This document shows, one piece after another, positions 21,881-24,000 of a stretch of DNA of 24,000 nucleotides (within the stretch, counting starts at the first letter, position 1; every line of letters begins with the position of its first letter). The DNA is from Candidatus Methylomirabilota bacterium. Lineage in GTDB: Archaea > Thermoproteota > Bathyarchaeia > 40CM-2-53-6. The position numbers and the translations under genes are program-made. The stretch spans positions 1 to 24,000 of the forward strand of contig DATKOK010000073.1 of assembly GCA_035524675.1 (NCBI GenBank). Direction: 5' to 3'. Under the pieces are notes generated by a model. The model did no database searches and was not told the DNA's origin. It saw only the letters and a list, made by a program, of their open reading frames with translations.

Positions 21881-22300
21881 TCAGGCTTCACTGTGCCGGA
21901 TAGCGTTACCGTGCTGACATTGATTAGGTCGGTTGAGCGCCTTACACATTTCAGCGACGAGGTCAGGATCGAGTAAGTAATCAATTTTCGAGGCTTCTGC
22001 ACAAGAGCGTTTGGAATCAAATCCAAGTTTCGTGTTAAAGTAAGATTCAACGATTCTGTGTTGATGCATTATTGACTCGGCGACGACGACGCCTCTTTTT
22101 GTCAATACTGGTGCCTTCCATGGTTTCTTTGCTACGAGATGTTTTTGTTCGAGCTTATCTAAGATTTCAATCGTTGTAGGCAGCCTCACGTCGAATCTCT
22201 TAGCCAACGTGGAGACTGAAGCGGAGTCGTTTGATTCGCTGAGACGGTACATTGCTTGCAAATACGCTACTTCGGACCTGCTTAATTCAGGGAGCTTCAG
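21881..22300 (-). CDS. DtxR/MntR-family metal-dependent transcriptional regulator (short form, no SH3-like domain), apparent CTG start
   Basis: LSRSEVAYLQAMYRL matches helix 1 of DtxR/MntR, followed by the wHTH VSTLAKRFDVRLPTTIEILDKLEQKHLV. The dimerisation/metal region includes HQHRIVESYF and CQHGNAI. The first canonical start (TTG 22261) falls inside helix 1. CTG 22300 has a perfect GGAGGT 8 nt upstream. Confidence 0.75.
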   Translation of the reverse strand: MKLPELSRSEVAYLQAMYRLSESNDSASVSTLAKRFDVRLPTTIEILDKLEQKHLVAKKPWKAPVLTKRGVVVAESIMHQHRIVESYFNTKLGFDSKRSCAEASKIDYLLDPDLVAEMCKALNRPNQCQHGNAIRHSEA

Positions 22301-22350: not shown

Positions 22351-23202
22351 TCACCTGGAATGTGATCCAATCCACTTTGCCACCATCGTAGTGAGAAGTA
22401 ATCCTAGCCCGACCAGCACAATTGTTCCGCCGGGCGCAGCGTGAGGTTGGATTATAGAGACAAGCATCCCCACGATCACCGACAATGATCCGAAGATGGG
22501 TGAGAGTAAGACAGTTTGCTTGAAGGACCGGGCGATTTGCATACTGGTTAACGCCGGAAGCACGAGGAGTGCCGATATGAGCAGGATGCCTACTATTGGG
22601 ATTGAAACGATAACTGTTATTCCGGCGAGTAACGCCAGCAAATAATCAAACCTGCAGGTTACTATCCCTGAAGCTCTAGCCTGGACCTCATCGAAGATCG
22701 TGTAGAGTAATTGCTTGTAAAATGTGAATAATATCAGTACTGTCACTACCAGAACGAACGCGGCGGCGTAGATCTGGTTCCATGTGACAAGCAAGATACT
22801 TCCAAAGAGCAATGCGTCCAGATTGAAACCGTAATTCAGCGTGACGCTCGTAACAAAAATCCCTGTGGCCAGCCCAAGTTCTAGAAAAACTGCCACTGCC
22901 GCGTCGCCGCTGAACCTTGCGGAACGAATAGTCTTCGTGATCATTATGGACCCAAGCACAACTATCGCGCCCCCAATCAAGTATGGGTTGACTCCTGACA
23001 AGCTAGGGATTAGTGCTCCGATGGCAAGTCCTATTGCGATTCCTCCGTAGGCAGTGTGTGCGAGGCCGTCGCCGATGAGGGACAACCTCTTGAGCACAAT
23101 GTACACGCTTAAGATCGAGCTTAGGACTGCTACGATTATTCCTATGATGAAGGCGCGCTGGATGAACCCAGCGTTGAGATATGTGAGGATCGGATTAAGG
23201 AT
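22351..23202 (-). CDS. ABC-3 family metal (Zn/Mn/Fe-type) importer permease, apparent ATC start
   Basis: RLSLIGDGLAHTAYGGIAIG is the family signature, and the protein is polytopic. The in-frame sequence upstream of the tracked GTG 23106 reads LTYLNAGFIQRAFIIGIIVAVLSSILSV, which is the conserved first TM helix. There is no ATG/GTG/TTG between the stop at 23218-23220 and 23106. ATC 23202 or ATC 23190 are the candidate starts. Confidence 0.85.
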   Translation of the reverse strand: MLNPILTYLNAGFIQRAFIIGIIVAVLSSILSVYIVLKRLSLIGDGLAHTAYGGIAIGLAIGALIPSLSGVNPYLIGGAIVVLGSIMITKTIRSARFSGDAAVAVFLELGLATGIFVTSVTLNYGFNLDALLFGSILLVTWNQIYAAAFVLVVTVLILFTFYKQLLYTIFDEVQARASGIVTCRFDYLLALLAGITVIVSIPIVGILLISALLVLPALTSMQIARSFKQTVLLSPIFGSLSVIVGMLVSIIQPHAAPGGTIVLVGLGLLLTTMVAKWIGSHSR

Positions 23203-23962
23203 GGTCTCCGTGTTTGATCACTTCAACTGCGTAATTGTAGGCTTTCGGGAGGATTGAGTCTGCGTCGAATCGGGTCGTCAGACCGTCGAAGTACAATCGG
23301 CGGTTTATGCATATGATTGTCCGGGCGAGCTGCGTTACGACTCCGAGATCGTGGATCGAGAGGATCGTTGTGATGCCGAGGTCTCTGTTAAGTTGCTCTA
23401 GGATGCCGTAGAACTCTTTCTTCGCTTCCATGTCGACACCACTCGTAGGTTCATCGAATATCAGCATCTGGGGTTCTCCCACCAGGGCCTTGGCTGTGAA
23501 GACTCGTTGTGTTTGTCCGCCTGAGAGTTCGCCGATTCGCCTCTTTCTAAGATGTTCAATTTCGAGCCGATTCAATGCTTCCTCGACTTTGCGATGATCT
23601 TCTTTCCTGAACCATGGGGAATGCATCGAGTATGGGACTCGTCCCATCAGTACGGCTTCGTAGACTGTTGAAGGGAAATTGCTATCTTTCGAATAGGGTA
23701 TTTGAGGGACGTAACCTATCCTTTTCAGATTATTTGGGGAGATTGGTTCTCCGAAGAGACGGACAGTTCCTGTGGTTGGTTTTATGATGCCGAGTATTAC
23801 GTTGAGGAGGGTTGATTTTCCTGCACCGTTAGGTCCTATGAGGCCAACGAAGTCGCCTTTATGGATCTCTAGGGTTATGTGTTCGAGTGCTTGGACGTCG
23901 CCTGGGTATGTGACGCCGACGTCATTTAGTTGAACTATTGTTTCTTTTGAGTCAGCCTTCAT
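23195..23962 (-). CDS. ABC-3 family metal importer ATP-binding protein (ZnuC/MntA/TroB-like)
   Basis: Walker A is GPNGAGKST, the signature motif is LSGGQ, Walker B is LIFDEPTSGVD, and the H-loop is SIHDL. It is followed by the cognate permease. Confidence 0.9.
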   Translation of the reverse strand: MKADSKETIVQLNDVGVTYPGDVQALEHITLEIHKGDFVGLIGPNGAGKSTLLNVILGIIKPTTGTVRLFGEPISPNNLKRIGYVPQIPYSKDSNFPSTVYEAVLMGRVPYSMHSPWFRKEDHRKVEEALNRLEIEHLRKRRIGELSGGQTQRVFTAKALVGEPQMLIFDEPTSGVDMEAKKEFYGILEQLNRDLGITTILSIHDLGVVTQLARTIICINRRLYFDGLTTRFDADSILPKAYNYAVEVIKHGDHP

Positions 23963-24000
23963 TGGTCATTAACATCCGACGTGTGTTAGGGCTAGCTTTA

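Follow-up and report, generated by a model that had tools for sequence, protein, structure and literature searches.

PsaBC, whose permease PsaC has a solved structure (7KYO/7KYP), and ZnuBC (9OKO) are the closest described relatives of the metal-uptake operon considered here, which lies on the minus strand of a 24,000-nucleotide (nt) stretch of contig C73 from a Bathyarchaeia archaeon of soil or peat; this whole stretch is called the window, and all coordinates follow its numbering. The operon comprises, in this order, the genes for a ZnuA-type binding protein, an ATP-binding cassette (ABC) ATPase, a permease and a DtxR/MntR-type repressor, that is, the same gene set as in the known systems (PF01297, PF00005, PF00950 and a DtxR-type repressor), and its permease aligns with theirs along the whole length, including the first transmembrane helix (TM1). 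The proteins themselves are ordinary, and only the apparent start codons, ACG for the permease and CTG for the repressor, differ. On the basis of sequence comparisons it is argued below that the permease is probably translated from ACG 23211..23209, located within the 3′ end of the ATPase gene, by initiator tRNA in an initiation assisted by a Shine-Dalgarno (SD) element.

Initiation at near-cognate codons is known from several groups of organisms. In eukaryotes and viruses ACG and CUG are used in this way, as exemplified by the ACG starts of AAV VP2 and Sendai virus C′, and in bacteria rare AUU, AUC and CUG starts are found, e.g., in infC. The permease resembles these cases in having a codon one base away from AUG at the start position of a normal conserved protein, and the archaeal initiation factors aIF1, aIF1A and aIF2 are of the eukaryotic type (PMC4705826). 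Unlike the eukaryotic and viral examples, it belongs to an archaeon, in which internal cistrons are led by SD sequences, and ACG apparently replaces ATG at little or no visible cost and yields no minor isoform. In plant organelles an AUG start is created from ACG by C-to-U RNA editing; there, as here, a genomic ACG occupies the initiator Met position of conserved proteins, but the apparent CTG starts in the same archaeal genomes could not be repaired by a C-to-U change. A further comparison can be made with termination-reinitiation coupling, for which the overlaps dealt with in the parts of the literature considered here are of 4 nt (ATGA) or 1 nt (TGATG) and involve canonical starts (Huber et al. 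2019, PMC6728339; PMC10666635). As in those pairs, co-directional genes for subunits of one complex overlap in the window, with an SD-like motif inside the upstream gene, but the overlap is 17 nt if the permease coding sequence starts at ACG and 8 nt if it starts at the ATC codon discussed below, neither of which corresponds to the overlaps covered in those parts.

The permease N-terminus and its start column

On the minus strand the permease reading frame opens after TGA 23220..23218 and runs for 37 codons (23217..23107) without ATG, GTG or TTG; the first canonical start, GTG 23106..23104, is residue 38 of the extended open reading frame (ORF) and falls within TM1. Two ATC codons lie at the junction, one of them (23202..23200) overlapping the ATPase stop codon by 8 nt and the other (23190..23188) located 4 nt beyond it. 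A start-free run of this length is not improbable by chance (P of about 0.12-0.25), and therefore the case rests on homology and conservation, not on the length of the run. Residues 18-279 of the extended ORF match positions 4-256 of the 258 in the Pfam ABC-3 (PF00950) profile with E=4.4e-51, residues 17-276 align with residues 13-262 of PsaC, and ZnuB aligns as well. A hydropathy peak of 2.78, the second-highest of the permease, is located within residues 13-49, mostly 5′ of the GTG. An earlier note on this DNA had placed the gene among the ABC-3 metal permeases, with the conserved N-terminus and TM1 lying 5′ of the first canonical start and with translation beginning at a non-canonical codon that overlaps the 3′ end of the ATPase gene. 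These claims stand, as do the positions it gave for the stop codons, the start-free run, the GTG and both ATCs; the match to ABC-3 permeases is full-length and includes the N-terminal helix.

No relative without TM1 was found among the orthologues compared. Public gene calls for the permease family are nevertheless bimodal: one class, of 283-287 amino acids (aa), begins with M-E-T or M-E-I, and the other, of 247-259 aa, begins inside or after TM1. Three of the four short calls checked come from lineages with ACG at the start position, and the fourth is a plain mis-call of a gene starting with ATG. It is thus very probable, judging from the aligned genes, that gene finders wrongly trim TM1 from the ACG-start permeases.

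The ATPase/permease junctions compared came from 40 related genomes, the whole family (59 genomes), named genome contigs, metagenome contigs, and contigs from which the proteins in public clusters derive. Within the clade to which the permease belongs (76-100% identity), all rows have ATG or ACG as the third codon following the upstream stop, the ATG of the orthologues aligning with the ACG of the window. About 8 of some 19 lineages, derived from independent assemblies and samples, have ACG (the window; L002/L039/L052; L050/L054; L051; L003/L038/L057/L064; L162; L164; L165), and about 11 have ATG (L047, L065, L048/L049/L063, L053, the L004 group, L060, L058, L163, L023, L028/L061, L062). The reason for this restriction can be read from the overlapping ATPase frame, which has CAT or CAC followed by GG at the start column and encodes the His-Gly of the C-terminus ...K-H-G-D-H-P. 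Base 23210 is the wobble position of this His codon, CAC in the window and CAT in the ATG lineages. This same base is the middle one of the permease start codon, which can therefore alternate between ATG and ACG, but take no other form, as long as the ATPase with its conserved His is unchanged.

On permease DNA trees from which the start codon was excluded, at least 4 changes between ATG and ACG are required, and 6 when more rows are included, three of them inside well-supported clades; the count of 6 is the less certain because the deep backbone of the trees is poorly resolved. The recurrence of the exchange at an orthologous position is in this way established by comparison. The approximate 11:8 split of ATG and ACG lineages is close to the genome-wide ratio of the His codons (CAT 4383 : CAC 4613), so the switch looks nearly neutral and ACG seems cheap. 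In other genera of the family ATC or ATA is present in or near the start column at L035 (G054), L031 (G062) and L007 (G017); at L035 the first canonical start falls only within TM1, at L007 an ATG ATG follows after ten codons, and L031 has an ATG ten codons upstream.

Selection on the extension was assessed from the ratio of nonsynonymous to synonymous substitution rates (dN/dS) by the NG86 method, the values for the stretch of 34 codons from the start column to the GTG being computed from the dN and dS columns. Pairs of ACG lineages show dN/dS of 0.059-0.091 over the full permease length and of about 0.04-0.09 over these 34 codons, and pairs of ATG lineages give equal values. For L002 and L050, which share ACG by descent, dS is 0.236 and dN 0.018. 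Such strong purifying selection indicates that the extension is translated in the ACG lineages. Orthologues without the helix, or an extension free of constraint, were named in the earlier note as findings that would speak against a translated N-terminus; the orthologues keep the helix, and the extension is constrained.

Shine-Dalgarno geometry and the choice of start codon

Upstream of the ACG, within the 3′ end of the ATPase gene, lies the SD-like element GAAGTGATC, whose GTGATC can pair without mismatch with the 16S 3′ end usual in archaea. The aligned spacing amounts to 9 nt for the ACG and 18 nt for ATC 23202, while the SD spacing in this genome peaks at 7-10 nt. The motif also codes for conserved ATPase residues. 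An SD-like element is kept in 18 of the 18 tabulated lineages, with a predicted duplex of -6.3 to -16.7 kcal/mol against the assumed anti-SD, and its strength shows no clear difference between the ACG and the ATG lineages so tabulated. Because GAAGTGATC precedes the ACG at the spacing usual in the genome, internal SD-guided initiation is the likely route to the permease. Initiator Met-tRNA would presumably recognize the ACG as a near-cognate start, giving the full permease of 286 aa with TM1, and ribosomes translating the ATPase, or terminating on it at the stop codon 11 nt downstream of the ACG, may assist. The start would then have toggled between ATG and ACG repeatedly within the clade, the ATPase remaining unchanged. 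We infer from the comparisons the codon actually used, the insertion of Met at it, and the efficiency of initiation.

Reinitiation after the ATPase TAA could instead place the start at ATC 23202..23200, the candidate of the earlier note, or at ATC 23190..23188, and AUC, AUU and AUA are known as weak starts in bacteria. The 8-nt overlap of the first ATC with the stop is nearer to the classical coupling geometry, this ATC is kept in all but one of the ACG lineages examined, ATC or ATA occurs close to the start column in the distant orthologues L035, L031 and L007, and the length of the permease relative to PsaC fits an ACG or an ATC start alike. However, the ATG of the orthologues aligns with the ACG, three codons upstream of that ATC, and the SD spacing to the ATC falls outside the peak. 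L164, whose protein is recorded on 14 contigs, has ACG in the start column but ACC in place of the ATC. ACC is also present at this position in several ATG lineages, and ATC is simply the majority Ile codon in the ACG and ATG groups alike; for this reason, and because L164 breaks the association, the joint occurrence of ACG and ATC is uninformative. The dhaK and gnd genes described below also point to ACG specifically. The choice of ATC as the permease start is thus unlikely to be correct, and ATC may possibly act as a minor, secondary or additional start.

If ribosomes shifted by +1 at the CCT TAA that ends the ATPase gene, the ATPase and the permease would be joined in one polypeptide, and the permease would need no start of its own. 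The permease frame is indeed +1 relative to that of the ATPase, and CCT-T together with the stop is kept in all close relatives. Yet dual coding accounts for this conservation, about 60% of the lineages possess both an SD-like element and an ordinary ATG, and distant orthologues have their own TTG or ATG starts. To our knowledge, CCU-U is not a slippery +1 site. The ACG cases in dhaK and gnd, moreover, were found by the orthologous start column and not by a junction with an upstream gene. With CCT TAA as its site, and with most relatives having an ATG or TTG start of their own, the junction does not resemble programmed +1 frameshifting, and a fusion of this kind is exceedingly improbable.

Candidate near-cognate starts in other genes

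If ACG serves as a start in the permease, other genes of the same genome may use it as well. In the whole metagenome-assembled genome (MAG; G000), for which a rough gene set of 1773 ORFs was compiled, in-frame codons at least 4 codons 5′ of the first canonical start were scanned. ACG has the highest share of correctly spaced SD 5-mers among these pre-start codons, 14/235 (6.0%) against a background of 2.35%; ATC, by contrast, has only 1 SD-associated case and no genome-wide enrichment, which adds to the arguments against an ATC start of the permease. The enrichment at ACG can be considered suggestive only.

Individual genes are more telling in their detail. In dhaK (G000 C17:677-1675, plus strand; locus L077:301-1296) ACG stands at the expected Met of M-KKLIND, with GAGGT 7 nt upstream; 63 codons separate it from the first canonical start, and the match to the Dak1 profile (1-313 of 313) begins at residue 17. 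The same ACG is present in five species (G000, G002, G003, G007, G008), four of which also have TTG or GTG a few codons upstream, and in more distant relatives the start column has ATG (G005, G009, G019) or TTG (G016). In gnd, encoding 6-phosphogluconate dehydrogenase (C79:3206-3208, minus strand, locus L166), G000 has ACG where the relatives have ATG (4/15) or TTG (11/15), and no canonical start precedes the Rossmann beta-1 strand (GxGxxG). A CoxM-like gene (C59:49053, plus strand) has ACG with GGGAGGT upstream where G014 has ATG. In the operon itself the DtxR repressor has CTG where most orthologues have TTG and others ATG, and GGAGGT lies 8 nt ahead of it; initiation at TTG 22261, the first canonical start, would truncate helix 1, and the near-identical contig L047, considered below, carries the identical CTG. 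A 12-codon ORF (ATG 22340) ends 1 nt before this CTG.

The comparison was extended to 433 orthologue pairs of G000 and 1.2 Mb of the complete-looking relative G014. In G014 one ACG with AGAGGTGG upstream stands 87 codons ahead of any canonical start, and one CTG is preceded by GGAGG. In a strict column test between the two genomes near-cognates account for 6 of the 18 cases without a canonical alternative, about 11% being expected; this is suggestive but noisy, since shifts of the alignment or conservation of untranslated regions account for many of the others. At the level of aligned codons, ACG and CTG at orthologous start positions of other genes are documented.

Further candidates were observed in both genomes. 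In G000 these are a 3-methyladenine-glycosylase-like gene (C47 13122-13766, minus strand) with CTG and GGAGGA upstream, an HflX-like gene (C80 6198-7283, minus strand) in which ATT or CTG directly follows a stop, and a beta-CASP nuclease gene (C124 12789-14111, minus strand) with a possible ATT start. In G014 both the ATPase and the permease of the operon lack canonical starts; the ZnuC-like ATPase (ORF s1755, C1 at about 876977, plus strand, upstream of L003) has none before the first beta-strand, only ATT and CTG being available. A PurM-like ORF of G014 (s2157 on C1, minus strand) has a conserved N-terminus with 88 codons lacking a canonical start, and near the conserved boundary no codon differs from ATG by a single base; this could reflect a frameshift, a fusion or an assembly problem.

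The recurrence of ACG bears on another explanation, namely that the ACG is converted to AUG in the mRNA by C-to-U editing of the kind found in plant organelles. The non-canonical codon in the permease and in other genes is ACG, precisely the codon that such editing would repair; the co-occurring CTG starts are beyond its reach, however, and at the permease the specificity for ACG needs no editing because it is forced by the His codon. We know of no mRNA C-to-U editing in archaea, no literature search on this point having been made. Editing is therefore a very improbable source of the permease start. As for a dedicated decoding apparatus, a search for an initiator-like tRNA with a CGU anticodon yielded none, aragorn having recovered only 10 tRNAs from the MAG, none of them for Met or Thr, and the SUI1 homologue on C86, sought as an aIF1 with an unusual start, begins with a normal ATG.

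The closest sequence to the window is L047, a 2219-bp metagenome contig that differs from it at 13 positions (99.41% identity). At one of them, base 23210, the window has C and L047 has T, i.e., an ATG start. The C could thus have arisen by an error in assembly or consensus calling, or it could mark a recent allele that has lost function, the gene being really, or ancestrally, an ATG gene as in L047. In favour of this can be cited the near-identity of the two sequences, the window being only 0.5% diverged from L047 and hence too close for any judgement from dN/dS, as well as the composition of the MAG. The latter has three divergent copies of the permease and its operon, of which the two extra ones (C141:2163-2999 and C129:435-1280, with 82% and 76% protein identity) both have ATG starts and are each accompanied on their contig by an ATPase homologue; given the MAG contamination of 5.26%, they may represent co-binned related populations rather than paralogues. 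On the other hand, position 23210 is one of 13 ordinary-looking single-nucleotide differences, fixation of the same state is seen in at least 7 other lineages subject to purifying selection, and ACG is also found at the starts of dhaK and gnd in the same genome. An error or a null allele is accordingly a rather improbable account of the window, and even if the C were an error, the ACG phenomenon would hold in the relatives. The earlier note named corrected reads that create an ATG, GTG or TTG as a finding against its reading; this applies in part, since a 99.4%-identical contig does have ATG, but many other lineages are stably ACG.

Several points weigh against initiation at ACG. The accepted archaeal starts, and the only ones described in the literature searched, are AUG, GUG and UUG. 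In vitro, aIF1 of Sulfolobus discriminates against a non-AUG (AUU) start (PMC4705826). As the MAG assembly lacks the 16S 3′ end, an anti-SD sequence was assumed. The SD enrichment at ACG is modest, with a binomial P of about 0.002, an estimate not computed with a tool, before correction for 61 codons. Some distant orthologues of the permease start elsewhere, at a TTG right after the stop or at an internal ATG ATG. Finally, the ACG of the window must be very recent because near-identical L047 has ATG, and it may stem from an assembly error or be mildly deleterious. A literature search for ACG starts in archaea found no report, which is not proof of their absence. Translation of the permease from ACG is nonetheless the account that we consider probable.

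The operon and the possible use of near-cognate starts

The features of the operon are listed in Table 1. The ZnuA-family gene is directly upstream of the ATPase gene and lies mostly past the end of the window, and the operon is therefore complete.

Table 1. Features of the metal-uptake operon at the end of the window and the evidence for each
Feature	Position	Strand	Evidence
ZnuA-family solute-binding protein gene, 3′ end	window 23969..24000; whole gene C73 24979..23969	minus	Pfam PF01297 ZnuA, E=8.6e-65, ORF L083:70-1080(-)
ABC ATPase (ZnuC/PsaB-like), 255 aa	23195..23962, ATG 23962, stop TAA 23197..23195	minus	Pfam ABC_tran (PF00005), E=6.7e-33
SD-like GAAGTGATC in ATPase 3′ end	23216..23224	minus	sequence
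ACG, proposed permease start codon	23209..23211	minus	aligns with orthologue ATG start
ATC, candidate start of the earlier note	23200..23202	minus	judged less likely
ABC-3 metal permease coding sequence as proposed, 286 aa from ACG	22351..23211, stop TGA 22353..22351	minus	Pfam PF00950, PsaC/ZnuB homology, orthologues 283-287 aa
TM1, approximately residues 20-42 of the extended ORF	23092..23160	minus	hydropathy peak 2.78, alignment to PsaC start
DtxR/MntR-type repressor, probably from CTG 22300..22298	21881..22300	minus	Pfam Fe_dep_repr_C and Fe_dep_repress

Near-cognate initiation as such is not new; the features specific to this locus are the alternation of ATG and ACG that the overlapping His codon imposes, and the 99.4%-identical pair of sequences that differ in it. 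A broader and distinctly more tentative proposal is that ACG, and CTG with it, may be regular and efficient starts in this genus of Bathyarchaeia and not leaky ones. The interchanges of ATG and ACG, at least 4-6 in number, suggest near-neutrality, and the cause might be an altered stringency of aIF1 or of the initiator tRNA or, less likely, C-to-U editing. Were ACG and CTG regular starts there, the repertoire would be wider than any accepted prokaryotic table.

If the permease is indeed translated from ACG, the archaeal set of start codons would extend beyond AUG, GUG and UUG, which bears on the stringency set by initiation factors of the eukaryotic type. Standard gene callers would then mis-annotate a measurable share of the genes, at least about 1% of the orthologue pairs inspected, in a lineage that is very abundant in sediment and soil. 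The locus would also constitute a natural experiment, in which the overlap with the His codon permits ATG and ACG only, and the frequency of switching between them reads out the evolutionary cost of an ACG start.

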